Position numbers and translations under genes: made by a program
Shown here: positions 1,397-25,554 of the stretch, piece after piece
How positions within the stretch are numbered: the first letter of the stretch is position 1
Layout of the letters: every line of letters begins with the position of its first letter
Notes under the pieces: model-generated
The model's input: only the letters and a program-made list of their open reading frames with translations
What the model was told of the DNA's origin: nothing
Databases searched by the model: none
Source of the DNA: Candidatus Bipolaricaulota bacterium
GTDB taxonomy: Bacteria; Bipolaricaulota; Bipolaricaulia; UBA7950; UBA9294
DNA: 64,000 bases
Reading direction: 5' to 3'
NCBI GenBank assembly: GCA_028277345.1
Contig: JANQGM010000011.1
Location: 206 to 64,205, forward strand

Positions 1397-3613
1397 ATGA
1401 GGGATCACGTATCCTATAGGCATCCGAATCTGGATGGGGGGAGTTCGTTGGATCGCGTACTTGAGATTCTAAAGCAGTATTGGGGGTACGAAACCTACCT
1501 TCCTCAACAGCGTGAGGCCATCGCCTGTGGCGTGGCGGGCCGTGATTCGCTCGTCGTCCTGCCCACGGGAGGCGGGAAATCCCTCTGTTTTCAAGTTCCC
1601 GCCATGCGTTTGCCGGGAATGGCCATCGTCGTCAGCCCGCTACTGTCGCTCATGAAGGATCAAGTCGACGCCCTCACCGAGAACGGCATCGCCGCCGCCC
1701 GGATTGACAGCACGCAGACCCCGGATGAGCGAGACGACGTTCTCGCTTCCATTCGGCGTCAGGAACTCAAGATCGTTTACGTGAGTCCCGAACGCTTGAT
1801 GATGAACGGATTCGCCGACTTCTTGAAGCAGCATCCCATCTCCATGATCGCCATCGATGAAGCGCACTGCGTCAGCATGTGGGGACACGATTTCCGTCCC
1901 GAATATCGCCGTTTGGGGCAGCTGAAAACCACATTCCCGGACACAGCCATCCACGCCTATACCGCCACGGCAACGCAGCACGTCCGCGATGATATCGTCG
2001 AGCAACTGCATTTGGTCAATCCGAAGGTCCTCGTGGGGTCGTTCGATCGGCCGAACCTCATTTATTCCGTTGAACGCCGAACCGAGGTTCTACGTCAAGT
2101 TCGGGAAGTCCTCGATCGCCACAAGGGGGAATCATCCATCGTCTACTGCATTCGCCGGGCCGACGTGGATGATCTGGTTGACCAACTTCGCGATGTCGGC
2201 TATCGCGTCGCCGGGTATCACGCCGGGCTGCTGGATCGGGAGCGCAAAGCGGCGCAGAACGCGTTCATTCGAGATGAAGTCGATATCATCGTTGCCACCG
2301 TCGCCTTCGGCATGGGGATCAACAAGCCCAATGTCCGCGCCGTCATCCATGCCGGTATGCCGAAGTCCCTGGAGCACTACCAGCAAGAATCCGGACGCGC
2401 GGGGCGCGATGGACTCGACGCCGAGTGCGTTCTGCTCTATGGCGGAAACGACTACGGTACCTGGAAATACATCATCGAACAGTCCGAATCCGAGCAGGCC
2501 GTTCGCATCGCCCTTCAGAAGTTGGGAGACATGTCCTCGTATGCATCGGGCGTCATCTGCCGCCATCGTGCGCTTGTGGAGTACTTCGGCCAAACCTTGG
2601 AGGCCGACAACTGCAAGGCCTGTGACGTGTGTTTCGGAGATTTGGAGTTGGCTGAGGACGCCCTCGTCGTCTCGCAGAAGATCCTGTCCTGCGTCTTCCG
2701 CCTCGACCAACGCTTTGGCGCCGATTACACCGCCAACATCCTGTTAGGGTCGAAGGAACAGCGCATTCTGCAAGCGGGGCACAATGACCTCTCCACCTAT
2801 GGACTGCTATCGGAGTTCACCAAGAAACGTGTTCGCGACTGGATCGAACAGCTGGTGGGGCAAGGCTATCTCGTCAAGGGCGGGGAGTACAACGTCCTCT
2901 CCATCTCGGAGCGCGGTTGGAAGGCCCTCCGCGGAGAAGAGACGCCGCGGCTACTGAAACCTGCCGAGCGCTCGCGCAAGCATACGGTTCTTGAGGATTC
3001 TTGGGAAGGCGTCGATCGCGGGCTGTTTGACACGCTTCGCGTGCTCCGGCGCAAACATGCGACCGCGCGAAACGTCCCCGCCTACATCGTGTTCGGGGAT
3101 GCCTGCCTGCGTGACATGGCGCGTCGGCGTCCATCGTCCATCGAGGGATTTCTTGAGGTCAGCGGCGTCGGACAAGCGAAAGCCCGGCAATACGGCGAGG
3201 AGTTCGTGGCCACGATTGCCGAGTACTGCCGCACTCACGCGCTCGATCGGGATATCGATCCATCCGTGAAGCCGGTTCCGAAACCCGCTCGGTGCAAGAA
3301 ACGCACGCGGGCGACCCTCGACCTTTCCCGGCAACTCGCCTTTGGACGCTTCGAGAAGGGCGAATCCATCATCGCCGTCTCCGACGCCATCGAGAAGAAG
3401 CCGGAGGTTGCCATCAAGTACCTACTCGACTACATCGCGCAAGAGGGTCTTACCACGCCTGAACCGTGGGTTGATCTGGGCACCTTCGATCGCATCGCCG
3501 ACGTCGCCAAGATCAAGGGAACAGCGAGGATTATGGCAATCCTGAAAGAGGTTTCAGATGTTGCGGACTATGACCAGGTCAAGATTTCCATTGAATGCCT
3601 CAAGAACCTCTAG
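1397..3613 (+). CDS. recQ: ATP-dependent DNA helicase RecQ (with ~130-aa extra C-terminal extension after HRDC)
   Basis: Helicase motifs I-VI (LPTGGGKSLCFQ, DEAHC, SATAT, RQC zinc region CRH...CKACDVC), HRDC-like segment; start moved to internal ATG (MRDHV) to avoid overlap with upstream minus-strand gene. Confidence 0.9.
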   Translation: MRDHVSYRHPNLDGGSSLDRVLEILKQYWGYETYLPQQREAIACGVAGRDSLVVLPTGGGKSLCFQVPAMRLPGMAIVVSPLLSLMKDQVDALTENGIAAARIDSTQTPDERDDVLASIRRQELKIVYVSPERLMMNGFADFLKQHPISMIAIDEAHCVSMWGHDFRPEYRRLGQLKTTFPDTAIHAYTATATQHVRDDIVEQLHLVNPKVLVGSFDRPNLIYSVERRTEVLRQVREVLDRHKGESSIVYCIRRADVDDLVDQLRDVGYRVAGYHAGLLDRERKAAQNAFIRDEVDIIVATVAFGMGINKPNVRAVIHAGMPKSLEHYQQESGRAGRDGLDAECVLLYGGNDYGTWKYIIEQSESEQAVRIALQKLGDMSSYASGVICRHRALVEYFGQTLEADNCKACDVCFGDLELAEDALVVSQKILSCVFRLDQRFGADYTANILLGSKEQRILQAGHNDLSTYGLLSEFTKKRVRDWIEQLVGQGYLVKGGEYNVLSISERGWKALRGEETPRLLKPAERSRKHTVLEDSWEGVDRGLFDTLRVLRRKHATARNVPAYIVFGDACLRDMARRRPSSIEGFLEVSGVGQAKARQYGEEFVATIAEYCRTHALDRDIDPSVKPVPKPARCKKRTRATLDLSRQLAFGRFEKGESIIAVSDAIEKKPEVAIKYLLDYIAQEGLTTPEPWVDLGTFDRIADVAKIKGTARIMAILKEVSDVADYDQVKISIECLKNL

Positions 3614-3759
3614 TGCCCCAGGATTGCCAATCGAAGGTCCCACACTTGGGATCTTCGATCAAGCAACTGGGAACTATGCCATGGGCCAGTTCCTTCGAGG
3701 AGTCTTTCGACTCCTCGGGGCAAACACGAAAACCTCGCGAGGGCAATCCAAGAGATGAT

Positions 3760-4400
3760 GCCCTCGCAAGCGGCTCCTTCCAATAATCAAATGAGCCGCC
3801 AGTTGCCGATGGCTGGGAACTCTTCGAGTTCCGACGAGCACATCATCTCTTGGACTGTGCTCGTGTTCGTTTAGGAGCTTGATGGCGAAGCATCTTACGA
3901 CGACATCACAATTAGCCTCGCCTGTCTAGAAAACGGCAACTAGGCCATGAGCCAGTTGCTGGGGAGAAGCTTCCAGCTTCTCCGATCCACGCTCTTTCAA
4001 TATCGACATGAGGCGTTGGCAGCGCATGCAAGTATTAGAAGGCGCTGTCTACGACCGCATCAAGTCAACGACTGCGTTCGAAATACGTTGTCGATCCCGA
4101 GGACACTCAAAGACTTGATGTCCTCGCCAAGCAACTAGCCCTTGGCATAGTTGCCAGACCCTTCCAATGGTTACATGGGCAGCCAATGGCCGGGAACTCT
4201 TCGAGTTCCTACGAGCACATCATCTCTTGACTGTGCTCGTGTCCGATCAAGAGTTGAACGGCGAGGCCAGCTACGACGACATAAAATAAGCATCGCATGC
4301 CTCATCAACCTTGGGTAGCCCATACACGAGGACGATCAGAGACTTGATGTCCTCGTCGCGGCTCCCCCGATCGTTGAATGAGCCGCCACTCGTAGCGCGC
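3760..4400. repeat. Cluster of REP/MITE-like hairpin modules in a ~1-kb gene-poor 3' intergenic region; includes ~110-bp imperfect direct repeat (3795-3916 vs 4179-4291) each containing tandem hairpins GGAACTC-ttc-GAGTTCC and CGAGCACA-N13-TGTGCTCG
   Basis: Seen directly: near-identical segments 'gggaactcttcgagttcc(g/t)acgagcacatcatctctt(g)gactgtgctcgtgt' at both sites; module 'agacttgatgtcctcg..gcaact' recurs at 3760, 4111, 4340; core 'gttgccagacccttccaatggttacatg' at 4150. Confidence 0.6.
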
Positions 4401-4563
4401 GCTGAGCTGTTCGAACCAGAGAAATGGATACTTTCTGGTATCCATTTCTCTGAGGAACGCGCTCATGGCAGCGTTCCCAGCTCATCATTGCCGCTTGCCG
4501 CCAGATGTTTGGCGCAGTTGCGCCAAACTCTGACCTGCCCCTTCTATGCGACAAATGGGCAGG

Positions 4564-8673: not shown

Positions 8674-9549
8674 ATGACTGTTCCCGCCCTCTTGCTTGCC
8701 TTGGCCGCAACGCTCTGCTGGTCAACCACCTGGGTTCTCATGAAGGCGGGAGTCGATCGCATGGATCGCACCACCCTCGGCTTTCTCCGTCCGTGGATGG
8801 GTCTGCTTTTCATCGTTCCCTATGCCTGGGCAACGAACGGCTTCGTCTTCGGATCGCCTTCGCTGGTTTGGATAGGACTGGGAAGCGGATTCCTGAACGC
8901 CTTCCTCGGCGTAGCCCTTTTCTATTTCGCGCTTTCGCAAGGATCGATGCACCAGACCAACATCTTGGCTGGCACCAATCCGTTCTGGGGCGCACTCAGT
9001 GCCATCCTCATTCTCAACGAGCCGGCTCGAGGGTCCACATTCATCGCCGCAGGGCTGATCGTCGCGGGAACTTATTTCCTCGCACGGCGAAGCCGCGGCG
9101 ACTCGTCGAAAGCCCACCGGCTGCTCCCGACCCTTGCTGCGCTGGGCGCCGGTGTCTTGTGGGGGTTTACCGTCGCCGTCCCGAGCAAGTACTGCATCAT
9201 GAACGGCATGAGCCCGATCGCCTACCAGCTGCTGTTTACCGCGACTGGGGCTATAGGATGGACACTCGTTGCCATGCCGCGCTTGGTTCGCCGGACGCTC
9301 GCGATCTCTCGAAAAGGCGTTTGGATTGCACTTGTCTCCGCCTTCACAGGTTTCTTCGTTGGTTGGGTGTTCTGGCTACGGGCCATGCGCCAGGTGGATG
9401 CCAGCGCATTGGCCCCGCTCAACGGACTCACCCTCTTCTTTGCAGTTCTCCTCGGCGCTCTGTTCTTTAAACAGCGAATCACGCTGCGCATCGCGCTCGG
9501 AGGAGCGCTCATGCTGGCCGGCGTTACAGTGATTTCGCTATTCGGCTAG
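8674..9549 (+). CDS. EamA/DMT superfamily permease
   Basis: 291 aa, 10 TM segments in two EamA-like halves; RBS GGAGGAAAACAGG before ATG. Confidence 0.85.
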   Translation: MTVPALLLALAATLCWSTTWVLMKAGVDRMDRTTLGFLRPWMGLLFIVPYAWATNGFVFGSPSLVWIGLGSGFLNAFLGVALFYFALSQGSMHQTNILAGTNPFWGALSAILILNEPARGSTFIAAGLIVAGTYFLARRSRGDSSKAHRLLPTLAALGAGVLWGFTVAVPSKYCIMNGMSPIAYQLLFTATGAIGWTLVAMPRLVRRTLAISRKGVWIALVSAFTGFFVGWVFWLRAMRQVDASALAPLNGLTLFFAVLLGALFFKQRITLRIALGGALMLAGVTVISLFG

Positions 9550-12741: not shown

Positions 12742-13587
12742 GTGTGGTGTATGATTGATCGAGGAGGATTTACATACGTGGCGGTCAAAAGACGTATCTT
12801 CGAGATCCTAGAAGTAGCCCATGTCGGCGATTTGGCGAGCCGCTGGTTTGATGTATTCATCATTGGCCTGATCGCACTAAACGTGCTAACACTCATTCTG
12901 GGCACCGTTCCGTCATTGCATGGTGCCTATCAGGTTTTCAGGATCTTCGAGATTATCTCTGTGATTGTCTTCACCATCGAGTACGCGCTGAGATTGTGGA
13001 CCTGCAAGGAGAATCCGGATGTAACACTCAAGCGGTTTCCCCGGCTACGTTTCGCAGGTCGAGGAATGTTGATCATCGATCTCATGGCCATCCTTCCGTT
13101 CTACATTGCGTTGCTAGTACCAGCGGCGAGAGCGCTTGACTTACGTGTATTGCGAGCGATTCGCCTCACTCGCATCTTCCGGCTGTTCAAGTTAGGTCGG
13201 TACTCGGAATCGCTCAAAATCATGGGCAAGGTTTTTCGTGCCAAGCGTGAGGAATTAGGTATCACCGTCTTCGTACTCGTGATTCTCCTGATCATCGCTT
13301 CGTCGCTCATGTATTTCATTGAGAACCCAGGCCAGCCAGACGCCTTCTCCAGCATTCCAGCCTCGCTGTGGTGGGGGGTTGCGACCCTGACAACCGTCGG
13401 GTACGGCGATATTGTTCCCTTGACTGCACTCGGCAAAGCACTGGGAATGATTATTGCAGTACTTGGAATCGGACTTTTCGCTCTGCCTGCAGGCATTCTC
13501 GGTTCCGGTTTTGTCGAAGCTTTCGGTAGTTCCAAAGGCGAGCAACTGGTTTGCCCGCACTGCGGAAAAGGGATCCGAATGTCATGA
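12742..13587 (+). CDS. Voltage-gated potassium channel (Kv-like; S1-S4 sensor with RxxRxxRxxR S4, pore TVGYGD), C-terminal CxxC tail
   Basis: Selectivity filter TTVGYGD, S4 'RVLRAIRLTRIFRLFKLGR'; stop TGA overlaps hsdR ATG (ATGA). Confidence 0.85.
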   Translation: MWCMIDRGGFTYVAVKRRIFEILEVAHVGDLASRWFDVFIIGLIALNVLTLILGTVPSLHGAYQVFRIFEIISVIVFTIEYALRLWTCKENPDVTLKRFPRLRFAGRGMLIIDLMAILPFYIALLVPAARALDLRVLRAIRLTRIFRLFKLGRYSESLKIMGKVFRAKREELGITVFVLVILLIIASSLMYFIENPGQPDAFSSIPASLWWGVATLTTVGYGDIVPLTALGKALGMIIAVLGIGLFALPAGILGSGFVEAFGSSKGEQLVCPHCGKGIRMS

Positions 13588-16433
13588 CCACACCGGAAGA
13601 ACGCGCAAGAGAAACTATCGACGCCAAGCTCGCCGAGTCAGGTTGGGTCGTTCAATCGCGAACAGAGATCAATCTCTCTGCTGGCCCAGGCGTCGCCATT
13701 CGCGAATTCCCGATGGCCAACGGCACGGGCTATGCTGACTACCTTCTCTTCGTGAACGCCGAAGCAGTAGGCGTCCTCGAAGCCAAACCTGAAGGACACA
13801 CACTCACCGGAGTCGAGATCCAGACTAATGACTACACCAATGGCTTCGCCTACGACATTCAAACGCCGATCGAGCCACTTCCTTTCCGTTATATCAGCAC
13901 GGGGACGGAAACCATCTTCTGGAACCATCTCGATCCTCACCCTCGCAGCCGAGAGATCTTCCAGTTTCATCGCCCGGACACACTGAAGGAATGGATCGGC
14001 TTCGAGAAGCTTCCGGAATGGTGCAGCGATTGGCATCCACAAGAGGGGCCCTATGCACCAGATCCAAGCTATCCATCGTCGTTGCGATCCAGGATTCAGA
14101 CGCTGCCCTCAGTCAACAAGAGCACACTCTATCCCAACCAGCTGCAAGCGGTTCAGAATCTCGAAGCATCACTCAAAGCCGATCACCCGCGAGCACTCAT
14201 TCAGATGGCCACTGGCTCCGGCAAGACAATCATGGCCATCACTGCCGTCTATCGTTTGATCAAATACGGTGGTGCTCGCCGCATTCTGTTCCTCGTCGAT
14301 CGCGGCAATCTGGGCGAGCAGGCTGAGAAGGAGTTCGCAAACTTCGTCACGCCTGACAGCAACCGCAAGTTCACTGAACTCTACAACGTCCAGCGACTTC
14401 TATCGAACACCGTCGGCTCGTCAACCAAAGTCGTGATCTCAACGATTCAACGGTTGTACTCAATGCTCAAGGGCGAGCCCGAGTTCGATCCAGCAGACGA
14501 GGAACAATCCCTTTATGGAGCCGGAATCGATGAGAAACGCGAACCCTGGCCGGTGGTCTACAACGAGACCATTCCCCCCGAGTATTTCGATGTCATCGTG
14601 ATCGACGAGTGTCATCGCTCCATCTACTCCGTCTGGCGGCAAGTGCTCGACTACTTCGACGCCTACCTCATCGGCCTTACTGCCACTCCGGCGAAGCACA
14701 CGTTCGGCTTCTTCAAGAAGAACCTCGTCATGGAGTATCGACACGAGGATGCCGTCGCCGACAACGTCAACGTCGATTTCGAGGTCTACAACATCCGTAC
14801 CAGGATCTCGCAAGAAGGCGCAACGCTCAAAGCATCTGAGACGCCTGCCATCGGCATTCGCGATCGACAAACCCGCGCCGTGCGCTGGGAGCAACCGGAT
14901 GAAGACATCGAATACGCAGGCAAGGATCTCGACCGATCGGTGGTTGCCGAAGACCAAATCCGCACCATCCTCACGACTTATCGAGACAAGGTGCGAACCG
15001 AAATCTTTGCAGGAAGGAAGCACGTCCCGAAGACTCTCATCTTCGCCAAGAGCGATGCACACGCCGAAGACATCGTCCGAATCGCGCGCGAGGTCTTTGA
15101 GAAGGGCAACGACTTCATCCAGAAGATCACCTACAAGACCACAGGCGCGAAACCCGCAGACCTGATCCAGCACTTCCGCAACAGCATGTATCCACGTATC
15201 GCTGTCACCGTGGACATGATTGCTACCGGCACCGACATCCGGCCCATCGAGGTCGTGATGTTCATGCGCATGGTCAAGAGCCGGGTACAGTTCGAACAGA
15301 TGAAGGGACGCGGCGTTCGCATCATCGATCCCAACGAACTGAAATCGGCCACGCCCGATGCCGAAGCCAAGACGCACTTCGTCCTGGTCGACTGTGTCGG
15401 CGTGACCGAGAGTAAATCACGCGATACACAGCCACTTGAGCGTAATAAGTCGATTGCCTTCAAAGCGCTGCTCGAACACGTTGCCCTTGGCGGCACGAAT
15501 CCCGACATGCTCAGTTCGCTGGCCAGTCGTCTCGCGCGACTCGATAAGCAATGTGACGAGAAGCAGCGCGCACACTTGACTGAAGTCGCTGGGGGCAAGC
15601 GTCTCTCGGAAATCGACCACGCTATCATCCGCGCGCTCAATCCCGATGAGCATGAAGCGAGAGCCCGGCAAACGCACGGGCTGAGCGAAGGCCAAGAACC
15701 GTCTGAAGGCCAGCTCGAAGCGGCTCGGCGTGAATTGCTGAAGGAAGCGGCAGAGCCGCTGGCCACCAACCCCGAGCTACGTAAGACATTGATCGAGACC
15801 AAGCGTTCGTTCGACCAGATCATCGATGACATCAGCCTCGACGAGTTGCTCAAAGCCGGTCCGTCTGTCGATGGCACCGAGAAGGCAAAGACTATTATCG
15901 CGTCGTTCGAGGAATTCCTAGCTACCCACAAGGATGAGATCGCCGCGCTTCAGTTCTTCTACGCTCAGCCGTACGGCAAGCGATTGACCTACGACGATAT
16001 CAAGACGCTACACGAAGCGATCCAAGCACCGCCACGATTGCTGACGCCCCAAAAGCTGTGGGCGGCGTACAAGACGCTGGAGGCCAACAAGGTTCGCGGT
16101 GCGAGCGCCCAGCGGCGATTGACCGACATTGTCAATCTTGTCCGTTTCGCGCTGCATCAGGCCGACGAGTTGGTACCCTATCCGGACGAAGTAGAATCTC
16201 GTTTCGAGAAGTGGCTCAATCTACAAGAAGCTCGGGGGCGATCGTTCACGTTGGAGCAGAAGCGGTGGCTGGTGATGATTCGCGATCATATTGCACAGAG
16301 CTTGGAGATCGACTTCGGTGATTTCGATTTCGTGCCGTTCAATGCCGAGGGCGGCATCGGCAAGGCTCGGGAGTTGTTTGGGACGGAGCTGAGGGCGCTG
16401 ATGGATGAGCTAAATGGGGTGTTGGTGTCGTGA
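13584..16433 (+). CDS. hsdR: Type I restriction enzyme R subunit (HsdR)
   Basis: HsdR_N domain (ETIDAKLAESGW...ADYLLF), SF2 helicase motifs (MATGSGKT, DECH as VIVIDECHRS, SAT-like, QxxGRGxR as KGRGVRI). Confidence 0.9.
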   Translation: MTTPEERARETIDAKLAESGWVVQSRTEINLSAGPGVAIREFPMANGTGYADYLLFVNAEAVGVLEAKPEGHTLTGVEIQTNDYTNGFAYDIQTPIEPLPFRYISTGTETIFWNHLDPHPRSREIFQFHRPDTLKEWIGFEKLPEWCSDWHPQEGPYAPDPSYPSSLRSRIQTLPSVNKSTLYPNQLQAVQNLEASLKADHPRALIQMATGSGKTIMAITAVYRLIKYGGARRILFLVDRGNLGEQAEKEFANFVTPDSNRKFTELYNVQRLLSNTVGSSTKVVISTIQRLYSMLKGEPEFDPADEEQSLYGAGIDEKREPWPVVYNETIPPEYFDVIVIDECHRSIYSVWRQVLDYFDAYLIGLTATPAKHTFGFFKKNLVMEYRHEDAVADNVNVDFEVYNIRTRISQEGATLKASETPAIGIRDRQTRAVRWEQPDEDIEYAGKDLDRSVVAEDQIRTILTTYRDKVRTEIFAGRKHVPKTLIFAKSDAHAEDIVRIAREVFEKGNDFIQKITYKTTGAKPADLIQHFRNSMYPRIAVTVDMIATGTDIRPIEVVMFMRMVKSRVQFEQMKGRGVRIIDPNELKSATPDAEAKTHFVLVDCVGVTESKSRDTQPLERNKSIAFKALLEHVALGGTNPDMLSSLASRLARLDKQCDEKQRAHLTEVAGGKRLSEIDHAIIRALNPDEHEARARQTHGLSEGQEPSEGQLEAARRELLKEAAEPLATNPELRKTLIETKRSFDQIIDDISLDELLKAGPSVDGTEKAKTIIASFEEFLATHKDEIAALQFFYAQPYGKRLTYDDIKTLHEAIQAPPRLLTPQKLWAAYKTLEANKVRGASAQRRLTDIVNLVRFALHQADELVPYPDEVESRFEKWLNLQEARGRSFTLEQKRWLVMIRDHIAQSLEIDFGDFDFVPFNAEGGIGKARELFGTELRALMDELNGVLVS

Positions 16434-17968
16434 GGAACTTCGTTCCGGCTGGCTGGAAAATCGCAGAGCTCGATTCGGTAGCTGGGATCACGCTCGGCCA
16501 AAGCCCTCCGAGCTCGACGTACAACACGGTCGGAGACGGGCTACCGTTCTTTCAGGGGAAGGCTGAGTTTGGGGCGCTGTCACCGACCCCAGTCAAGTGG
16601 TGCTCAGCCCCGGTCCGTGTTGCTCATCCCGGAGATGTGCTGATCTCGGTTCGTGCGCCGGTCGGCCCTACGAACTTGGCGGACACAGAATGCTGCATAG
16701 GACGTGGCCTGGCAGCGATCACGCCTCTTGGGGGTATGCCGTCCAAGTACTACCTCTACTACCTTCGTCACTCCGTTGAAGAACTGGTGCGTCAAGCAAC
16801 GGGCTCAACGTTCCAAGCCATCAACGGCAAGCAGCTCCGAGCCCACACAACCCTCGTCCCACCGCTTCCCGAGCAGCGCCGCATCGTCGAGACGATTGAG
16901 TCGCATCTGACGCGGCTCGATGATGCTGTTGCCTCGCTGGAGCGTGTACAGCGGAACCTCGAACGCTATCGCGCATCCGTCCTCAAGGCCGCCGTCGAAG
17001 GCCGCCTCGTCTCCACCGAAGCCGAACTGGCTCGCCAAGAAGGCCGAGACTATGAGACTGCCGACGTTCTCCTCGAACGCATTCTCGCCGAACGCAAGAC
17101 CCGCTGGATCGGAGACGCCGCCGAGAAGTCCCGCGCCAAGGCCGAAGCAAAAGCCCTCAAGGCGAGCAAGCCTTGGACTCTCGAAGACAAAGCCAAGGCG
17201 CGGGTGACCGCCGAAACCAAGTATAAGGAGCCACAGGCACCCGACACCACCGACCTCGCAGACCTCCCCGAAGGCTGGTGCTGGACCACGATCGACATCA
17301 CATCGAAGAATCATTCCCGTTCGATCTGCGCGGGCCCATTCGGGACGATCTTTAAGGCGAAGGATTTCCGGCCTGAGGGTGTTCCTATCATCTTCCTGAG
17401 GCATGTGAAGCCAGATGAGTACAGAAGGGGGAAGCCCACCTACATGGATCGCGCCAAGTGGGATGAGCTCTTTGAGCAGTACTCGGTCTTCGGGGGGGAA
17501 CTGCTGGTGACCAAGCTGGGTGATCCCCCTGGGGAGTGCGCTGTCTTCCCTAGGAGCGAAGGGACTGCGATGCTCACGCCTGACGTGATGAAGCTTGAGG
17601 TCCACAGAGAGTTGTCACCTCGCTACATCATGCACTACATGAACTCCCTGATCGCAAAGCAGTTCGCGTTCGGTGTCGCATTCGGCACAACGCGGCTCCG
17701 CCTCACGCTCCCCTTGTTCAGATCGCTCCTCGTCCCCATCCCACCGCTTGACGAGCAGGATCGGATTGTCGAGGCAGCGGATCGTCAGCTCTCGCTCGCC
17801 AAGAGCCTCGAGGACGAGGCCGAGATGGGCCTGCGTCGGATCGGCAGACTGCGGCAAGCGATTCTCAAGTGGGCCTTCGAGGGGAAGCTGGTCGAGCAGG
17901 ATCCAGCTGACGAGCCCTCGTCGGCGCTCTTGGATCGGATCCGATCGAGGGAAGCAGGTGCTGGATGA
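16430..17968 (+). CDS. hsdS: Type I restriction-modification specificity subunit (HsdS), two TRDs with conserved central and C-terminal coiled-coil repeats
   Basis: Duplicated TRD architecture and conserved 'LPPLxEQxRIVexxd' repeats after each TRD; GTG overlaps hsdR stop. Confidence 0.85.
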   Translation: MRNFVPAGWKIAELDSVAGITLGQSPPSSTYNTVGDGLPFFQGKAEFGALSPTPVKWCSAPVRVAHPGDVLISVRAPVGPTNLADTECCIGRGLAAITPLGGMPSKYYLYYLRHSVEELVRQATGSTFQAINGKQLRAHTTLVPPLPEQRRIVETIESHLTRLDDAVASLERVQRNLERYRASVLKAAVEGRLVSTEAELARQEGRDYETADVLLERILAERKTRWIGDAAEKSRAKAEAKALKASKPWTLEDKAKARVTAETKYKEPQAPDTTDLADLPEGWCWTTIDITSKNHSRSICAGPFGTIFKAKDFRPEGVPIIFLRHVKPDEYRRGKPTYMDRAKWDELFEQYSVFGGELLVTKLGDPPGECAVFPRSEGTAMLTPDVMKLEVHRELSPRYIMHYMNSLIAKQFAFGVAFGTTRLRLTLPLFRSLLVPIPPLDEQDRIVEAADRQLSLAKSLEDEAEMGLRRIGRLRQAILKWAFEGKLVEQDPADEPSSALLDRIRSREAGAG

Positions 17969-18486
17969 GTAATCAGGAACTCAACGCCGCACGCGAGCGG
18001 GTCGACTCAAAGCTACGGTATGCCTACGTCATGCAGGCTGATCTCCGCGGGATGCCTCGACGCGGAAGTGACGACGAACGTGCTCATCAGGAGGCGTTTC
18101 TCTTCCACCTGCTGGGTACACGAGATGCTTTGCTCCAGGAGATGAACGTATTCTACGGTCTGGGGTTGGATAGGAAGTCTGTGAGCATTGGCTCCATCCG
18201 CGACGGGCTTGCCGCCGCAGGCAAGTCGTCCGGTGCACTCACGAAGCTCGTCGCGATCGAGAGCGATTCCTCAAGTTGGCTGAACTGCGCCAAGGACATG
18301 AGGAACCATGCAACACATCGCGCCAATGTGGGCCGACACTTCTATCAGGGCGGCCCGAAGAGCGGTCAGGCATCACTGAGAGACACGAGAACGGGCAAGG
18401 AGATCGATAAGGACTATGTTGACCTTCACGATGACTGGCTAAACAAAATGGGCAAACTCGTGACAGACCTGAGAACCCTGATGTAG
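17965..18486 (+). CDS. HEPN-like (DUF4145-like) protein inserted between hsdS and hsdM
   Basis: 173 aa, predicted all-helical; C-terminal Rx4H motif (RNHATHR) typical of HEPN RNase superfamily; ATG overlaps hsdS stop (ATGA). Family assignment is inference. Confidence 0.5.
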   Translation: MSNQELNAARERVDSKLRYAYVMQADLRGMPRRGSDDERAHQEAFLFHLLGTRDALLQEMNVFYGLGLDRKSVSIGSIRDGLAAAGKSSGALTKLVAIESDSSSWLNCAKDMRNHATHRANVGRHFYQGGPKSGQASLRDTRTGKEIDKDYVDLHDDWLNKMGKLVTDLRTLM

Positions 18487-18494
18487 GAGGGACA

Positions 18495-20033
18495 TTGGCG
18501 GACAACAGCAACGGCGCACTCGCAGCGAAGCTCTGGTCCTACTGCCATCTGCTCCGCGACGATGGACTGAGCTACCAGGACTATCTCGAGCAACTCACTT
18601 TCCTGCTCTTCCTCAAAATGGCTGAAGAGCGCGAAAACATGACTGGGGAACCGACGCCGATTCCCGAAGGCTATCGGTGGAGCAACCTATCAGCACCGGC
18701 GATGACAGGCGAGAAGCTGGAGGCGCATTACCGCAAGACTTTAGAGGAACTAGCCAAAGCATCGGGTATGCTCGGGCTTATCTTCCGCAAGAGCCAGAAC
18801 AAGATTCAGGACCCGGCCAAGCTGCGCCAACTCATCATCGAACTCATTGGTAAAGAAGACTGGCTATCCATGACGTCCGACGTGAAGGGCGATGCCTACG
18901 AGGCGTTGCTGGAACGGAACGCCCAGGACACAAAGTCAGGCGCAGGCCAGTACTTCACCCCTCGCCCGCTGATCGATGCTCTCGTGGACTGTGTCCAGCC
19001 ACATCCGGACGAGGTCGTGTGCGATCCGGCCTGCGGTACCGGAGGCTTCCTACTCTCGGCCTATCAGTTCATGAGCAAGGGCGAGCTTGATCGGGATGAG
19101 AAGCGACATCTGAAGTACCACGCGCTTCGGGGCGTAGAACTTGTGGATGGCGTCAGCCGCCTCTGCGCGATGAACCTCTTCCTTCACGGCATCGGCCCGG
19201 ATGACGGCGAGTACGAGCCACCCATTCGCACCGACGACAGCCTGCGTAATGAACCAGCAGAACACTACCCGGTCGTCGTCACAAATCCGCCATTCGGGAA
19301 GAAATCGAGCATCACCATCGTCAATGAAGCGGGAGAGACCGACAAACAGGCAATCAGCTACAACCGTCCTGACTTCTGGACCACAACCACCAACAAGCAA
19401 CTCAACTTCGTCCAGCATATCAAGAGTCTGCTTGCCCAGAACGGCCGCGCCGCTGTCGTCGTGCCCGACAATGTGCTCTTCGAAGGTGGCGCGGGCGAGA
19501 CCGTGCGGCGGAAGCTGATGCACGAGTGTAACCTCCACACCATCCTGCGCCTGCCAACCGGCATCTTCTATGCCCAAGGCGTGAAAGCGAACGTCATCTT
19601 CTTCGAGCGCAAGCCCGCCAGTGAGACACCGTGGACAAAGACCGTCTGGATCTACGATCTACGCACCAACAAGCACTTCACCCTCAAGCAGAACCGTATG
19701 AAACGCGCCGACCTCGACGAGTTCGTTGCCTGCTACAACCCCGAGAACAGGCACGAACGAACGCCGACCTGGTCCGAGGGGAATCCTGATGGCCGCTGGC
19801 GCGCCTATGCCTACGACGAAATCATCGCCCGCGACAAGGCTAGCCTCGACATCTTCTGGCTCCGCGACGAAGGCCTCGAAGATAGCGCCAACCTCCCAGA
19901 TCCCGACATCCTCGCCGCCGAAATCATCGAGGACCTCCAATCCGCCCTTGAAGAACTCCAGGCCATCTCTGTCGACCTCGCCCAAACCCCAGGAGCTCAA
20001 GAAAGGAGAAGAAATGCAAACACCTCCCAGTAG
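18495..20033 (+). CDS. hsdM: Type I restriction-modification N6-adenine DNA methyltransferase subunit (HsdM)
   Basis: HsdM_N domain, SAM motif I (DPACGTGGFL), motif IV NPPFG. Confidence 0.9.
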   Translation: MADNSNGALAAKLWSYCHLLRDDGLSYQDYLEQLTFLLFLKMAEERENMTGEPTPIPEGYRWSNLSAPAMTGEKLEAHYRKTLEELAKASGMLGLIFRKSQNKIQDPAKLRQLIIELIGKEDWLSMTSDVKGDAYEALLERNAQDTKSGAGQYFTPRPLIDALVDCVQPHPDEVVCDPACGTGGFLLSAYQFMSKGELDRDEKRHLKYHALRGVELVDGVSRLCAMNLFLHGIGPDDGEYEPPIRTDDSLRNEPAEHYPVVVTNPPFGKKSSITIVNEAGETDKQAISYNRPDFWTTTTNKQLNFVQHIKSLLAQNGRAAVVVPDNVLFEGGAGETVRRKLMHECNLHTILRLPTGIFYAQGVKANVIFFERKPASETPWTKTVWIYDLRTNKHFTLKQNRMKRADLDEFVACYNPENRHERTPTWSEGNPDGRWRAYAYDEIIARDKASLDIFWLRDEGLEDSANLPDPDILAAEIIEDLQSALEELQAISVDLAQTPGAQERRRNANTSQ

Positions 20034-20508
20034 TCCCCAACTCAACGGATACCAAGAATCACTGGAGCTGGTAAGGTATGAGGGGAGCCTACTGTGGCAG
20101 ATCTTTGGAGCGTTTCTGCTTGCACACACAGTCTTCCTTGGGTTTGCTTTGAGCCTCGCTCTCACTGAAGACGCGCTTGCTCAGTGGCAACTGGGATCGT
20201 TCCTTCTCGGACTCATGGGCCTTCTTCTTTGCCTGCCCTGGTGGTCGTGTTTCCGGCGCAATTCCATCTACTACATCTTTCGCATGGCACAAGCCCGGGA
20301 GAAGGAACCGGTGGGATGGGATCTTGTCGCGGGCAAGGGGAAGAGACTCGCCGAGGGGGAGTGTGTACAGGTTGGAGGTGAATGCCATCAGATCCGCGGT
20401 GTTTCACGATGGCTTCGTACCAGAAGAGCCGTTCCGCTCCTGATCATTGCCTTTGCGTTGGCGTACGCTTTCGTGGTCGCTGCGAGTGGTCCCTGGTGGA
20501 TCAAATGA
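20014..20508 (+). CDS. Small 3-4 TM membrane protein, translationally coupled to hsdM (start overlaps hsdM 3' end)
   Basis: 164 aa from ATG 20014 with AAGGAGAAGAA RBS; three hydrophobic helices; longer ORF-track start (19726) rejected because it overlaps hsdM in another frame. Confidence 0.55.
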   Translation: MQTPPSSPQLNGYQESLELVRYEGSLLWQIFGAFLLAHTVFLGFALSLALTEDALAQWQLGSFLLGLMGLLLCLPWWSCFRRNSIYYIFRMAQAREKEPVGWDLVAGKGKRLAEGECVQVGGECHQIRGVSRWLRTRRAVPLLIIAFALAYAFVVAASGPWWIK

Positions 20509-20562: not shown

Positions 20563-21492
20563 ATGCTGATATCAGAGGCTGAGCAGTACCACGCTGCACC
20601 TTTCGAGTCAGAGGCCGAGCTCGAGCAGGTTGTTTGGGAGAACTCGGAACTCCTCTTCGGCGCAAACGCCATCTTCCTTCCCAAAGCTAAGATAGGAATC
20701 TCAAGCAAGGCTCAGACAATCCCGGATGGATTCGCCATCGACCTTGAGTCCAATCGCTGGTTCATCGTTGAAGCCGAGTTGGCGTCTCATGGAACCTGGC
20801 ACCACATCGCGCCTCAGATCTCCAAGCAGGTCACTGCACTTGAGGCTCCAGAGACTCGCGAGAAAATCCTGGGAATGGCTCTGGCCGCGATTCAGGATGA
20901 TGAGCAGGTCAAAGACGCGATCGCGGATCTGGGCATCCCTGAGATTGAGATTCACGGCAGGCTACAAGCAGTCTTGAGGAAGCCACCAGTCGTCGCCATC
21001 CCTATCGATGCTGTTCCAAGAGACCTTGAATCTTGGACACGCTCACTCAAGTACGATGTGCAGACGTGGATTATCGAGAAGTACGTCACGCTCGACGGCA
21101 CGAAGGTCATGTACTCCCTGCCTGAGCAGAACAGACCAACGATTCCAACACCTCGTGACGACGGGAACTCCGGCTCCACAGGCACGCAGCCCTATGCGGA
21201 TCTTCTCAATGCTGAGATGATCCAGGTCGGGCAGAAGGTGCACATGAAGTACGGCCCGAAGAGCGGACGCAAGGAGATTTTCCACGGCCTCTTGCGCGAA
21301 GAGGGTGTAGAAGTCAATGGGCGGGTCATGTCACTCAGCACCGCCGCACTGCTTTGCATTCGAACGATCAACCCTGCGCGCAAATCCGTCAATGGCTGGA
21401 AGAAATGGAAGACTGAGGACGGCGATACCCTAAACGAGATCTATGCAAGATACGAACAGCAGGCTGCAGAAACCGAGAAAGAGAGTGACTAG
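20563..21492 (+). CDS. Two-domain hypothetical protein: N-terminal PD-(D/E)xK-like nuclease core (IPDGFAID...WFIVEAEL), C-terminal ~100-aa domain of unknown function (KYGPKSGRKE...GRVMSLSTAALLCI)
   Basis: Motif-level resemblance to restriction-endonuclease fold; defence-island context. No catalytic Lys unambiguously placed. Confidence 0.5.
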   Translation: MLISEAEQYHAAPFESEAELEQVVWENSELLFGANAIFLPKAKIGISSKAQTIPDGFAIDLESNRWFIVEAELASHGTWHHIAPQISKQVTALEAPETREKILGMALAAIQDDEQVKDAIADLGIPEIEIHGRLQAVLRKPPVVAIPIDAVPRDLESWTRSLKYDVQTWIIEKYVTLDGTKVMYSLPEQNRPTIPTPRDDGNSGSTGTQPYADLLNAEMIQVGQKVHMKYGPKSGRKEIFHGLLREEGVEVNGRVMSLSTAALLCIRTINPARKSVNGWKKWKTEDGDTLNEIYARYEQQAAETEKESD

Positions 21493-21536
21493 CAAGTACA
21501 AGTTCTCGAATCGACTGCATTGGATGTAAGACCCTG

Positions 21537-23018
21537 ATGATCACTGCATCAATGCTCTATAGCTTCTCGTGCTGCCCACACCGGGTTACGCTCGACCTAT
21601 TCGGAGATCCTACTGTGAGGGATCCCATCAGCCCTTTCGTTCAACTGTTTTGGGAGCGGGGGCATGCCTTCGAGGTTGACACCATCAAGAACCTCGGAGT
21701 TCCCTTTCTCAACCTGCGTGATGTCCCGCTTGCCGAAAGAGAGGAATTGACCTCGCGCGCCATGGTGCAGGGGGAAGAGCTAATCTATGGAGGCCGGATC
21801 TCTCATAGCAATTTGCTCGGTGAGCCCGATCTCTTGCGGAAGACAGATGACGGCTATATCCCAGGCGACATCAAGAGCGGAGCAGGTTTGGAGGGCACGT
21901 CCGAAGAGGTGACCGGCAAACCCAAGAAGCAGTACGCTCTGCAGCTCGCGCTGTATTCCGACATCCTGCAAAGAAAAGGGTCAGCACTCACCCGCGATTC
22001 CTTCATTTGGGATATCCATGGGCAGGAAGTTGTCTATAACCTTTCGGAGCGTCGTGGCCCCAGAACACCTCACACCATGTGGGAGGAGTATGAGGACGCG
22101 CTGGAGACAGTCACCGGCATTTCGAAGAAAGCGGTCGAGACTCAGCCCGGATTGATCGGTGAGTGCAAGCTTTGTCCATGGCAAAGCCACTGCCGCCGGG
22201 AAATCCTGCGAGCGGATGATCTGACCTTGATCACGAGCCTCGGCCTGAGCAAACGATCCGGATTCCCTCCTGAGATTCGCACGGTTCAGGCCTTGGCGGA
22301 TGCCGATATCGAGACGTACATCCAAGGAAAGAAGACAGCGATTCCTGGGATTGGCGCGAACACCTTGCGGACCTTTCATGCCCGCGCCGTACTGCAGAAA
22401 ATGCCTAATGCAATCCCCTATTTCACAGACCCGGTCGACCTTCCCAGGTCTCCCATCGAACTATTCTTCGATATCGAAACCGATCCATTCCGCGATCTCT
22501 GCTATCTGCACGGTTTCGTCAAACGCGAACATGGGAACAACGATTCGGAAGAATTCATTGCGTTCACGGCTGATGAAACCACCCCAGAGCAGGAGAAGGC
22601 AGCTTTCGCTCAAGCGTGGGAATTCGTTCAGGAATACAGCGATGCCTTCGTCTATTACTACTCACACTATGAGCGAACGACGTGGAAGAAGCTGGCCCGA
22701 CGCTATCCGGATGTAGCATCCGAGGACGACGTGATAGCCCTGTACGAGCAGCCGCGCTTCGTTGATCTGTACAATGATGTCGTGCGATCGAAGATGATCT
22801 GGCCCACGCATTCCCTGTCCATCAAGCCGTTGGCCAAGTCCATCGGATTCCAATGGCGAGACACTGATCCTTCTGGAGCTGCATCGGTTCAGTGGTTCAA
22901 TGACTGGGTGGAGTCCGGCAACGTAACCATCTGGAATCGCATCCTCCAATACAACGAGGATGACTGCCGAGCCATGCGCATCCTCGCCGATGAACTCCGA
23001 CGATTGGAAAGCTCGTAG
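21537..23018 (+). CDS. RecB-family nuclease, TM0106 type (Cas4-like N-terminal PD-(D/E)xK with Fe-S cysteines + C-terminal RNase H-like exonuclease domain)
   Basis: N-terminal Cys (SCCPHRV), DIK motif, C-x2-C-x5-C (CKLCPWQSHC), HhH-like segment, then 'LFFDIETDP' RNase-H-like acidic motif. Confidence 0.75.
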   Translation: MITASMLYSFSCCPHRVTLDLFGDPTVRDPISPFVQLFWERGHAFEVDTIKNLGVPFLNLRDVPLAEREELTSRAMVQGEELIYGGRISHSNLLGEPDLLRKTDDGYIPGDIKSGAGLEGTSEEVTGKPKKQYALQLALYSDILQRKGSALTRDSFIWDIHGQEVVYNLSERRGPRTPHTMWEEYEDALETVTGISKKAVETQPGLIGECKLCPWQSHCRREILRADDLTLITSLGLSKRSGFPPEIRTVQALADADIETYIQGKKTAIPGIGANTLRTFHARAVLQKMPNAIPYFTDPVDLPRSPIELFFDIETDPFRDLCYLHGFVKREHGNNDSEEFIAFTADETTPEQEKAAFAQAWEFVQEYSDAFVYYYSHYERTTWKKLARRYPDVASEDDVIALYEQPRFVDLYNDVVRSKMIWPTHSLSIKPLAKSIGFQWRDTDPSGAASVQWFNDWVESGNVTIWNRILQYNEDDCRAMRILADELRRLESS

Positions 23019-23076
23019 CTCCTCATCGTGCGGGCTATCAGGTGACAAGGGTGCATAGGTAAGTATTGTAGACAAA

Positions 23077-23107
23077 ATGCATACGATCGTATACGATAAG
23101 CATACGG
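23077..23107. promoter_or_regulatory. Operator-like palindrome ATACGATCGTAT flanked by GCATACG direct repeats, immediately upstream of wHTH-nucleotidyltransferase gene
   Basis: Seen in sequence (aaatGCATACGATCGTATACGATAAGCATACGgtg); likely autoregulatory site for the wHTH domain. Confidence 0.4.
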
Positions 23108-23116
23108 TGATAAAGC

Positions 23117-23713
23117 ATGCTCACAAAGCTGTTTGGATCGAATGCGCGCGTCAAGGTTCTAGAGCTCTTTGCGCTCAATGCTAGCAGCGAGTTCTACCTA
23201 CGCGAGATCGCGCAGCGGACAGGCCTAGCACTTCGATCTGTGCAACGAGCCGTAGAAGACCTCACAGAGATACACATTCTGATTCGAGAGAAGCGTGGTA
23301 ACGCCGTCTATTTCCGGCTGAATGGTGAGAATCCCATTACCGAGGACTTGAAGTCGATACTGCTGAAGACCGTCGGGCTCGCTGACCTGATTCTCGCGGA
23401 GCTAGGAGCCGAGTCGAGGATCGATGTGGCATTCATCTTCGGATCGGTCGCGAAGGGCGAAGAGCTGCCAACCAGCGATATCGACATCGCACTCGTTGGG
23501 GACATCCTTTCTCGCAGGCTCGCGGACCTTGTTGAGCGCCTCGAACAGAAAACGAAGAGGGAAGTTAACATTACCCCGTTCAGCTGCGAGGAATGGGGGG
23601 AGCGGATCTCGGCGGGTGATCACTTCGCGACAACACTACTCAGAGAGCCGAAGATCATGCTGCTCGGCCACACGAAGGAGCTGAAAACACTTGGGAGGGC
23701 GAATGAATCCTAG
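23117..23713 (+). CDS. Winged-HTH + nucleotidyltransferase (MNT-type, GSxxxG...DIDIAL) antitoxin-like protein
   Basis: N-terminal wHTH (ArsR-like), minimal NTase motif FGSVAKGEELPTSDIDIALV. Confidence 0.75.
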   Translation: MLTKLFGSNARVKVLELFALNASSEFYLREIAQRTGLALRSVQRAVEDLTEIHILIREKRGNAVYFRLNGENPITEDLKSILLKTVGLADLILAELGAESRIDVAFIFGSVAKGEELPTSDIDIALVGDILSRRLADLVERLEQKTKREVNITPFSCEEWGERISAGDHFATTLLREPKIMLLGHTKELKTLGRANES

Positions 23714-24005
23714 GATGCAGCCCACTTCGTCTGCCGAGATCAAAAGCTTGATGGCTATCGTCGAGCGCGATCTGCGGCAAGCAGATCTTCCTGGACTGCA
23801 TTCTGATGGGGTCTTTGGATTTCTCTACAACGCAGCTCTTTAGCTGGCAACAATCCTGGTCCGGCTCGAAGGTGAGCGATTTGGAGGCGCAGGCCACCAT
23901 CGTGAGTCGATTCGCCGTGCCCGCGACCTTGTTACTGACGACCTGAGTTCGGCGATCATTGTGTTCGAAAACATCACGACGGAAGCGCAACGCGTCGGTC
24001 TATGA
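23703..24005 (+). pseudogene. Candidate toxin-partner ORF downstream of MNT, interrupted by in-frame amber stop (TAG at 23841-23843); possibly degenerated HEPN-type protein
   Basis: ATG overlaps MNT stop; 46 codons, TAG, then 53 more sense codons in the same frame (LATILVRLEGERFGGAGHHRESIRRARDL...). HEPN assignment is inference from position only. Confidence 0.35.
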
Positions 24006-24224
24006 CAAGGTGTGAGTGATTACACAGACAGACATCACAAACTTGAGAGAGGCCATCGACTCGATCAAATCGTGGGTTCAGGAACAAGCCAAACCCTTGT
24101 TGGACGAGTAGTTTCAGCAGTTCAAGGAATACATGCCGCAACTCCACGCGCCCGCAAGATATGGTATATATCGCCAAACTATGAACTAAACGTATGGTCC
24201 ACGGCTCTCTAACCCAAGCAGTAC

Positions 24225-24400
24225 TATGATCGATATTTAAAACTTTCGATCATAACCTTCATTCATCGTGATCGCCTTGCTCAAGTCAATCGCAGCTATG
24301 ATCGATTTAGCTCTCTTTCGAATATAATTTGATGCTCGTGTGTCAGCATCGATCTTGTATCGCACGCTTATGATCGATATACTTTGATATCGATCATAAG
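24225..24400. promoter_or_regulatory. AT-rich (low-GC) leader with three ATGATCGAT-type inverted repeats; best copy CTTATGATCGATAT-N6-ATATCGATCATAAG (24367-24400) abuts Fic RBS
   Basis: Seen in sequence; perfect 14-bp arms; GC content drops sharply relative to flanks. Confidence 0.5.
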
Positions 24401-24408
24401 GAGGAGCC

Positions 24409-25554
24409 ATGCCACAGCCGGGACGCTGGATCGAGCTCCCCGAAGGATACACTGTATTCCTTCCCGAGCCTTTGCCCCCATCGTTTGACTGGACGACTCG
24501 GCTGATCAACGCACTGTCGGATGCGGACCGCGCTGTAGGGCGTTTGGCCGGAGAGGGACGCCGTCTGCCCAACCCCCACATTCTCATCCGCCCGTTTGTG
24601 GCCCGAGAGGCCGTTCTGTCGAGCAAGATCGAAGGAACACAGGCCACGCTGGGAGAATTGCTCGCTGCGGAAGCCGGCGCTGTCGTCAATCACAGCCCTG
24701 ACGATCTTCGTGAAGTTGCCAACTACGTCGTTGCGTTGGAACACGGCATGGCCCAACTGGACACCACCGGCTTGACCGTGGAGTTGCTTCGCGAGGTTCA
24801 TGCCAAATTACTGGTCGGTGTGCGAGGAGAACACGCCCGCCCCGGCGAGTTCAGAGACAGGCAAAACTGGATTGGGTTGCCCGGCTCAACTCCGCACACC
24901 GCCGTCTTCGTTCCGCCTCCGCCCGGAGAGGTTGCCTCGCTACTGGAGTCCCTCGAGCGCTTTCTGCAGCAAGAATCGCTTCCTCCGCTTGTCTCGATTG
25001 CACTTGCCCACTACCAGTTCGAAGCCATCCATCCCTTCCTCGATGGAAACGGCCGGGTGGGGCGGTTGTTGATTACGCTCTTCTTCCATGCGCGCAAGGT
25101 GCTCCCCTCGCCGCTTCTGTACCTAAGCGCATTCTTCGAAGCATCGCGCCGAGAGTACTACAGCGAACTTCGCGCCGTCTCAGAGCAGGGGGTTTGGGAG
25201 GACTGGTTGGTCTACTTCCTCAACGGAGTGGCCCGCCAGTCTGAGGATGCCGTCGATCGCTCCACACGGATGCTCGCGTTGATGGATACGTGGCGGTTGC
25301 GGGCCGCTGCGCTGTCGTCAGATACACCGTTGCGCGTGCTGGAGTTACTCGCCGGCAATCCCTTCCTAACCGCCGCCGGAGTCGAAGCTCAACTCGGCGT
25401 CGCACGGTCAACCGCCGCGAGAGCGATCACGCGCCTCGTCGAGCTAGGAATCGTCGAACCCGCAGACGAGCGCCAACGGGATCGCGCCTACTGCGCGCGC
25501 GCGTTACTGAAAATCCTGGAAGAGCCGACGAGATTAGAGATTCGGCACCCCTAG
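24409..25554 (+). CDS. Fic family protein (AMPylator-type; HPFxDGNGR motif) with C-terminal wHTH
   Basis: Fic motif HPFLDGNGRVGR; Fic_N-like N-terminus; GAGGAG RBS. Confidence 0.9.
   Translation: MPQPGRWIELPEGYTVFLPEPLPPSFDWTTRLINALSDADRAVGRLAGEGRRLPNPHILIRPFVAREAVLSSKIEGTQATLGELLAAEAGAVVNHSPDDLREVANYVVALEHGMAQLDTTGLTVELLREVHAKLLVGVRGEHARPGEFRDRQNWIGLPGSTPHTAVFVPPPPGEVASLLESLERFLQQESLPPLVSIALAHYQFEAIHPFLDGNGRVGRLLITLFFHARKVLPSPLLYLSAFFEASRREYYSELRAVSEQGVWEDWLVYFLNGVARQSEDAVDRSTRMLALMDTWRLRAAALSSDTPLRVLELLAGNPFLTAAGVEAQLGVARSTAARAITRLVELGIVEPADERQRDRAYCARALLKILEEPTRLEIRHP

Follow-up and report, generated by a model that had tools for sequence, protein, structure and literature searches.

A HEPN-like protein of the Cthe_2314/DUF6586 branch encoded at the hsdS-hsdM junction of a type I restriction-modification operon: a candidate accessory RNase

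What is the role of a small helical protein whose gene is lodged between the specificity and methyltransferase genes of a type I restriction-modification (RM) operon? The question is raised by a stretch of 64,000 nucleotides from a Candidatus Bipolaricaulota bacterium (GenBank assembly GCA_028277345.1, contig JANQGM010000011.1, positions 206 to 64,205), referred to here as the window. An open reading frame (ORF) at window positions 17965–18486, on the + strand like all window features described below, encodes a 173-amino acid protein, designated X, which an initial annotation had read as a HEPN RNase-type insert of the operon. The results presented here support the assignment of X to the Cthe_2314/DUF6586 branch of the HEPN superfamily, as a minimal protein of one domain. 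The reading of its function that we favor, tentatively, is that X is an accessory, metal-independent RNase that serves as a second-line anti-phage effector of the abortive-infection type and is carried as cargo by the RM operon.

X is embedded in a complete operon. The ORF is present as initially described and its product is predicted to be mostly helical. Pfam searches verified the neighbors. Upstream, hsdR (13551–16433) encodes a 960-amino acid restriction subunit (ResIII, 5e-38; EcoEI_R_C, 1.4e-34; also Helicase_C and HSDR_N), and hsdS (16430–17968) encodes a 512-amino acid specificity subunit in which Methylase_S (2.8e-17) is matched in two stretches, as for two target-recognition domains. 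Downstream, hsdM (18495–20033) encodes a 512-amino acid methyltransferase subunit (N6_Mtase, 1.2e-68; HsdM_N, 1.3e-12). The coupling on both sides that had been noted initially is evident in the sequence: the ATG start of X shares ATGA with the hsdS stop, and at the downstream junction (18484–18497) the TAG stop of X (18484–18486) is abutted by the ribosome-binding site GGAGGG, followed by the TTG start of hsdM at 18495, 8 nucleotides past the X stop. This hsdM start position matches the starts of HsdM homologs. Since hsdR and hsdS also overlap, by 4 nucleotides, the four genes R-S-X-M constitute one tightly coupled unit; X, being translationally coupled, would therefore be made whenever HsdS and HsdM are made. 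The ratio of nonsynonymous to synonymous substitution rates (dN/dS) of X is 0.06 and 0.09 against its two closest relatives, which indicates purifying selection; the corresponding values are 0.08 and 0.10 for hsdM and 0.34–0.41 for hsdS, and 0.13 for hsdR (one relative only). The GC content of X, overall and at third codon positions, matches that of the rest of the operon. X is thus confirmed as a real gene under functional constraint.

Sequence comparison indicates that X is part of one homologous group that Pfam splits between two families, DUF6586 and HEPN_Cthe2314. X itself scored 20.2 bits against HEPN_Cthe2314 (PF18730; E=6.6e-4; gathering cutoff, 27.1) and 17.9 bits against DUF6586 (PF20227; E=4e-3; gathering cutoff, 27). 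A word-indexed search yielded 31 homologs, and an exhaustive profile search, run against 1.84 billion representatives, yielded 501 clusters at E ≤ 1e-3, including 215 at E ≤ 1e-10. Among 70 full-length family representatives, 63 match DUF6586 at E ≤ 0.01 (best, 6.8e-13; several above 27 bits) and 18 match HEPN_Cthe2314 (best, 1.5e-8). In the Pfam annotation, homolog P0202 belongs to both families and P0160 to PF18730 only. P0160 clears the PF18730 cutoff (29.3 versus 27.1 bits) and aligns with residues 8–171 of X so that the motifs coincide (29% identity, E=7e-20). Because it is P0160, and not X, that clears the cutoff while aligning to X over its full length, the membership of X in HEPN_Cthe2314 is transitive rather than direct. 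DUF6586, a Pfam family of "unknown function," is now connected to the HEPN superfamily. The label "DUF4145-like" that the initial annotation had attached to X did not survive; DUF4145 identity is ruled out, as no match was found for X at E ≤ 1 or for the 70 relatives at E ≤ 0.01. A match to Apea was weak and limited to one of the 31 relatives. Weak similarity in the motif region was seen between P0160 and Abi_2, and between X and an Abi PHROG.

The features that define HEPN domains include an Rx4-6H motif, a polar residue (mostly N, D or H) directly after the arginine, and another acidic residue, in helix 2 near the motif, usually within an Ex3[KR] pattern; the topology is an up-down bundle of four helices, in which an insert separates helices 2 and 3 and the motif closes helix 3 or opens the loop that follows it (PMC3710099). 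The RNHATH sequence from which the initial annotation argued is present at residues 113–118 of X (codons at 18301–18318), two-thirds along the protein rather than near its C-terminus, and, placed where helix 3 ends, is predicted to be the catalytic Rx4H motif of the HEPN domain. An Rx4H motif alone is not evidence, since it arises in 44% of shuffles of the X composition (R[NDH]x3H in 8.6%); the case rests on conservation and on independent evidence. As would be expected if the initial proposal were correct, the pair is near-invariant among homologs: R113 is kept in 67 of 70 representatives and H118 in 68, down to 28% identity and always with a spacing of 4. The residue after the arginine is N in 28 representatives, D in 27, H in 14 and S in one, that is, N, D or H in 69/70. 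Other positions are similarly kept, including E43 (69/70), E59 (68/70), W105 (66/70), and R12 and K16 (each in at least 66/70), and across the 31 closest sequences R12, K16, L17, Y19, E43, L49, G51, E59, W105, R113 and H118 are invariant. The alignments therefore point to a family that possesses the first two of the HEPN features. Helix 2 contains E43 and E59, neither of which has K or R at +4, so that the Ex3[KR] form is absent.

The predicted structure is consistent with this assignment. An AlphaFold2 model based on the 31-sequence alignment had a predicted local distance difference test score (pLDDT) of 90 with an uncertain motif loop, and a model based on the 70-sequence alignment reached a pLDDT of 97.4 and a predicted template modelling score of 0.91. 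The latter contains helices at residues 3–29 and 36–63, insert helices at 75–84 and 90–100, a helix at 105–119 whose C-terminal part holds R113 to H118, an insert of three beta strands, and a final helix at 151–172. As modelled, the topology is that published for HEPN: H1, H2, a helical insert, H3 with the motif, and H4. A Foldseek search of the PDB (350,542 chains) with the pLDDT 97.4 model placed HEPN proteins at ranks 1–4, with probabilities of 0.60–0.89. These are AF_0298 (2hsb; E=0.093, probability 0.85), 7bxo_F (a 131-residue chain of a toxin-antitoxin complex, which we take to be HepT; probability 0.89, TM 0.58), HI0074 (1jog_A) and SO_3166 (5yep_B). HEPN proteins account for 14 of the top 50 PDB hits, sacsin HEPN and YutE among them. 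The same search with the shallower model (pLDDT 90) was uninformative, with MscS helices at the top. In the BFVD collection of viral structures, the best match was A0A516KPP1, an unnamed 166-amino acid protein (E=0.013, probability 1.00, TM 0.55), which may be a phage-encoded relative of the X family. The HEPN reading of X put forward initially is thus upheld by the profile similarity, including that of P0160, by the conserved motif and by a predicted fold that fits.

The genomic context of the family falls into two classes. All 10 distinct relatives with at least 45% identity to X and a readable neighborhood lie between hsdS and hsdM in one and the same type of R-S-M operon. This set comprises P0002, P0003, P0004, P0008, P0010, P0014, P0031, L022 (Lentisphaeria) and L029 (metagenome), together with the window protein, and the RM-embedded members form a single clade in a neighbor-joining tree. 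The more distant relatives, at or below 44% identity, are solo: RM genes are absent within 6 kb of them, and the same invariant residues are kept. Solo members were found beside an IS110 transposase gene, beside metabolic genes, beside PIN_3, beside a Swt1-type HEPN gene near phage tail-like genes, and between a GmrSD-HNH gene and another HEPN gene; no conserved neighbor, partner or antitoxin gene was found beside them. In the Swt1 case, solo gene P0016 directly follows the Swt1-type HEPN gene (L010, 5325–6564; L011, 5101–6340), and the pair, as tandem HEPNs, lies downstream of genes with the tail-spike chaperone domain Peptidase_S74, at an apparent prophage end. Hosts of the family include Thermotogota, Chloroflexota, Gemmatimonadota, Planctomycetota, Bacteroidota, Lentisphaerota and several proteobacterial classes. 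Taken together, tree and neighborhoods show that a solo gene of this family was captured once, by one type I RM lineage, at the boundary between hsdS and hsdM. Since then, X appears to have been inherited, and to have moved horizontally, together with the operon, which would be mobile across phyla. The Cthe_2314 branch thereby gains its first conserved genomic context.

Within the RM-embedded clade the junctions are similar. X overlaps hsdS by 4–8 nucleotides, and hsdM either starts 8–9 nucleotides past X behind GGAGG or overlaps X by 8 nucleotides. Coupling to both hsdS and hsdM is kept in five of the six operons examined. The exception is L025 (3213–3806), in which X is cut short (166 amino acids, P0031), hsdM starts 92 nucleotides past the X stop, and the missing C-terminal helix is legible in another frame before hsdM. 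Either X has become a pseudogene by frameshift or the assembly contains an error; the case suggests that X can decay in an operon whose RM genes persist. Sequence identity to the window X ranges from 46 to 87% in operons whose HsdM is 80–90% identical to the window HsdM (L001, L006, L008, L022, L026, L029, L106 and L108), and the two values do not track each other; X and HsdM are 60% and 88% identical in L006, and 47% and 90% in L026. This suggests that X, somewhat like hsdS, evolves faster than HsdM or that its alleles move from one operon to another.

The junction itself was surveyed in 80 metagenomic loci with HsdM 57–90% identical to the window HsdM, 60 of which had enough upstream sequence. 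Directly upstream of hsdM, hsdS was abutting in 31 of these 60 loci, X was present in two, another gene in 26 and an hsdR fragment in one. X is limited to operons with HsdM at least 80% identical to that of the window (range, 80–90%), and L028, with HsdM 86% and HsdR 80% identical to the window proteins, is without X. The other cargo includes AbiEii-WYL toxins, Schlafen/AlbA_2-HATPase-HTH proteins, GmrSD_C, a DUF559 endonuclease, RNase H, HIRAN, DUF3800, DUF4926 and IS200-like proteins, and several proteins without a match. From this comparison, the hsdS-hsdM junction in related RM operons is best described as a variable and exchangeable cargo slot. Because the slot is empty or otherwise filled in related operons, X is optional cargo and not a core part of the RM system. 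With known defense and toxin genes among its contents as well as unknowns, the slot of this RM lineage is a place to seek new defense genes. Among the cargo without a Pfam match (L026–L105), a 161-amino acid protein recurs in L098, L100 and L101; further such proteins are 247 amino acids (L074), 241 (L088), 205 (L072) and 371 (L057) in length. These proteins are candidate unknown defense genes.

We infer an abortive-infection or toxin function for X from its family and its context. In the proposed mechanism, X would be a metal-independent endoribonuclease with a predicted active site where helix 3 ends, formed by R113, N114 and H118 with the probable help of E43 and E59 from helix 2. It would probably act as a dimer, as for other HEPN RNases, and would cut RNA once a phage gets past restriction. 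In the reading that we prefer, X would retain the autonomous activity and the trigger of its solo relatives, with the operon serving mainly for co-expression and co-transfer. Several results weigh against this reading. X scores below both Pfam cutoffs, PADLOC and NCBIfam searches returned no match for X, and only two PHROGs matched it, at E of 0.1 or worse, neither usable. No Foldseek hit in the PDB reached E ≤ 1e-3, the best being 0.093, and the structural evidence is for this reason a consistent enrichment rather than a significant match. Profile-profile comparison (hhalign) with the Swt1-type HEPN family, using an alignment built from the neighbor of P0016, gave a probability of 0.3; because this template is shallow (effective number of sequences, 1.9), the result is a failed low-power test and not a refutation. 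HEPN families are hard to link to one another. No antitoxin gene, sensor domain or inhibitory RNA is evident for X, and tandem repeat arrays, which could encode a repeat-RNA antitoxin, were found neither in the operon nor around 12 solo members. A literature search returned no mention of DUF6586 and no characterized family member. Finally, some HEPN domains, such as AbiA, are catalytically inactive (PMC13064643). Part of this evidence would also fit a protein that is not HEPN at all, but a generic helical bundle whose arginine-histidine pair has another purpose and whose weak Pfam and Foldseek matches are due to convergence. The lack of an individually significant structural match, the negative hhalign result, and PDB sequence searches that returned only noise (for example, a His-tag match) with both the single X protein and the profile are as expected for such a bundle. 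It is nevertheless very unlikely, given that a family member clears the curated HEPN_Cthe2314 cutoff and that HEPN proteins occupy the first four ranks among all PDB chains. A HEPN fold without catalysis, serving as a structural accessory or binding RNA or nucleotides so as to tune RM expression or assembly, for example the timing of restriction versus methylation after transfer into a new host, is somewhat easier to entertain, yet still improbable. The position of X between S and M with coupled translation would suit such a role, and inactive HEPNs do serve dimerization (AbiA, PMC13064643) or RNA binding (MtlR, PMC3710099). However, loss of catalysis usually costs the Rx4-6H motif (PMC3710099), which is near-invariant in the X family, 31 of the 60 related operons work without an insert, and the solo relatives are far from any RM system.

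The location of X also raises the possibility that it guards the RM system in the manner of PrrC. X would then be latent on the HsdM2-HsdS core and be freed as an RNase by a phage anti-restriction protein (Ocr, ArdA or Stp-like), as a sensor-less, minimal analogue of PrrC-EcoprrI. By analogy with PrrC we regard this as possible but rather doubtful. The conserved coupling to hsdS and hsdM (with L025 as the exception) and the retention of X, after one capture, in one RM sub-lineage across phyla are in its favor, and RM-embedded X carries clade-specific substitutions relative to solo members, at a short list of positions. These residues were considered as a docking surface, which was set aside as the short list is not interpretable. 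No other regulator is visible, and something must restrain X, most obviously the methyltransferase core with which it is co-translated. PrrC provides the precedent, together with the "RM guardian" concept (PMC3710099, PMC12707154). Against guardianship, solo relatives keep the invariant residues in the absence of any RM system, the slot also holds many unrelated and apparently self-contained systems, a close sister operon does without X, and X has no ATPase or sensor domain of the PrrC type. On the first three grounds we favor autonomous action. There is a slightly smaller, minor chance that X is the smallest known "RM guardian," a bare HEPN RNase silenced on HsdM2-HsdS and released by DNA mimics or anti-restriction proteins; if true, the RM enzyme itself would be the sensor, and the same logic might extend to other cargo of the hsdS-hsdM slot. 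X might instead act as an addiction or stabilization toxin that penalizes loss of the operon by post-segregational killing and is not directed at phage. HEPN proteins are often the toxins of toxin-antitoxin pairs (PMC3710099), the operon appears horizontally mobile across phyla, and the pairs HicAB and MazEF are adjacent in the homologous locus L001. But no cognate antitoxin gene or RNA lies beside X, whether RM-embedded or solo, and type I RM systems already show addiction-like behavior, making this the least probable of the explanations. X is a very small test case, with 173 amino acids and two obvious predicted catalytic residues, and the sister operon without X and the solo relatives are natural controls.

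A second variable slot lies downstream of hsdM. All X-bearing operons have a gene there that shares 8–35 nucleotides with the 3' end of hsdM, and the encoded proteins are mutually unrelated. In the window this gene (20014–20508; 20-nucleotide overlap) encodes a predicted 164-amino acid membrane protein with a sub-threshold match to Pfam 8xMP (25.2 bits versus a cutoff of 30), which may or may not be functionally linked to the RM operon. The corresponding genes are at 9051–10154 in L001, 8039–8737 in L006, 6085–7434 in L008, 5715–6650 in L024 and 7062–7553 in L106. The product in L024 is DUF4268 and that in L108 is Mrr-like; those elsewhere are unknowns. The X-bearing operon of L006 also contains a DUF1016/YhcG gene (PD-(D/E)XK-type; 3255–4427) in an "rlo"-type slot between hsdR and hsdS. 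Thus, one operon can carry two accessory genes.

The operon is followed by a stretch resembling a defense island (20563–25554). It comprises genes for a RAMA-domain protein (20563–21492; weak PDC-S14/S57 matches) and a TM0106-family RecB-like nuclease with an RNase_H_2 domain (21537–23018), a MntA-like MNT-type gene (23117–23713; PADLOC PDC-M05A, E=2e-48), its partner (23691 to about 24000; PDC-M05B, E=2.5e-13), and a gene for a Fic-HTH protein (24409–25554). The PDC-M05B gene has an in-frame stop at about 23841–23843; either this toxin gene is disrupted or the sequence contains an error. In L001, too, the homologous operon is flanked by a Fic gene, reminiscent of the association of RM, HEPN and Fic/Doc described earlier (PMC3710099). 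Directly upstream of hsdR is a gene for a voltage-gated-type ion channel (12742–13587; Ion_trans, 1.6e-37) with a TVGYGD filter, and in L006 (8715–9710) and L007 the second gene downstream of hsdM encodes an Ion_trans_2 channel. The proximity of a channel gene to the operon may be a coincidence or a recurrent neighborhood.

Comparison with known systems indicates which aspects of this locus are new. X is homologous by sequence to the HEPN_Cthe2314/DUF6586 proteins and of the same length class (about 170–200 amino acids), although it scores under the curated cutoffs. AbiD/F, AbiV, AbiJ and MntA-HepT are likewise small HEPN RNase toxins of abortive infection, and HepT-type toxins, if 7bxo_F is indeed HepT as we presume, are among the best structural matches to X. 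HepT has an MNT antitoxin as its neighbor, whereas the neighbors of X are hsdS and hsdM and its solo relatives have no conserved neighbor; the MNT pair in the window (23117–24000) is a module separate from X. AbiF and AbiV, of type III toxin-antitoxin systems, are neutralized by upstream repeat RNAs (PMC13064643). In contrast, no repeats were found in the X operon or around the solo members, and since X starts inside hsdS there is no intergenic space upstream for a repeat RNA. X shares with Cthe_2314 the Rx4H motif given as conserved for that protein, whose operon context was "None detected" in the 2013 survey (PMC3710099); the RM-embedded clade of X is an association not recorded there.

PrrC is the closest parallel in context. 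It is a HEPN-type RNase encoded among the hsd genes of the EcoprrI type IC RM operon, the model of a second-line defense triggered when restriction is defeated (PMC3710099, PMC12707154) and, with PARIS, an established system that senses RM inhibition (PMC12707154). In the literature searched, it was the only RM-embedded HEPN found described as experimentally worked out. X is likewise embedded in a type I RM operon (hsdR-hsdS-X-hsdM). However, PrrC combines its nuclease with a large N-terminal ABC-ATPase regulatory domain and is from another HEPN family, whereas X is a bare 173-amino acid domain with no ATPase match, and the RM lineage differs from EcoprrI in that its HsdR has an EcoEI-type C-terminal domain. 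PrrC has been shown to lie latent on the RM complex and to be activated by anti-restriction; for X, both are conjectural. Other HEPN families found in RM operons are DUF4145, ApeA, EC042_2821 and pEK499_p136, and the RM-coupled predicted HEPN RNases were proposed to give a multi-pronged defense (Anantharaman et al. 2013, PMC3710099). X is assigned to a different family; it had no DUF4145 match, and the Apea match was single and weak. Intervening ORFs in R-S-M loci, termed mlo between hsdS and hsdM and rlo between hsdR and hsdS, come from a 2005 study as cited in PMC5183652; they represent the same cargo-slot phenomenon, in different bacteria and RM families. A HEPN RNase gene in an RM operon is therefore an already known kind of arrangement, with PrrC and the 2013 survey as antecedents, and the coupling of such RNases to RM, predicted since 2013, is familiar to specialists. 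New are the RM context of this family, its bare single-domain architecture, and the hsdS-hsdM junction as an exchangeable slot.

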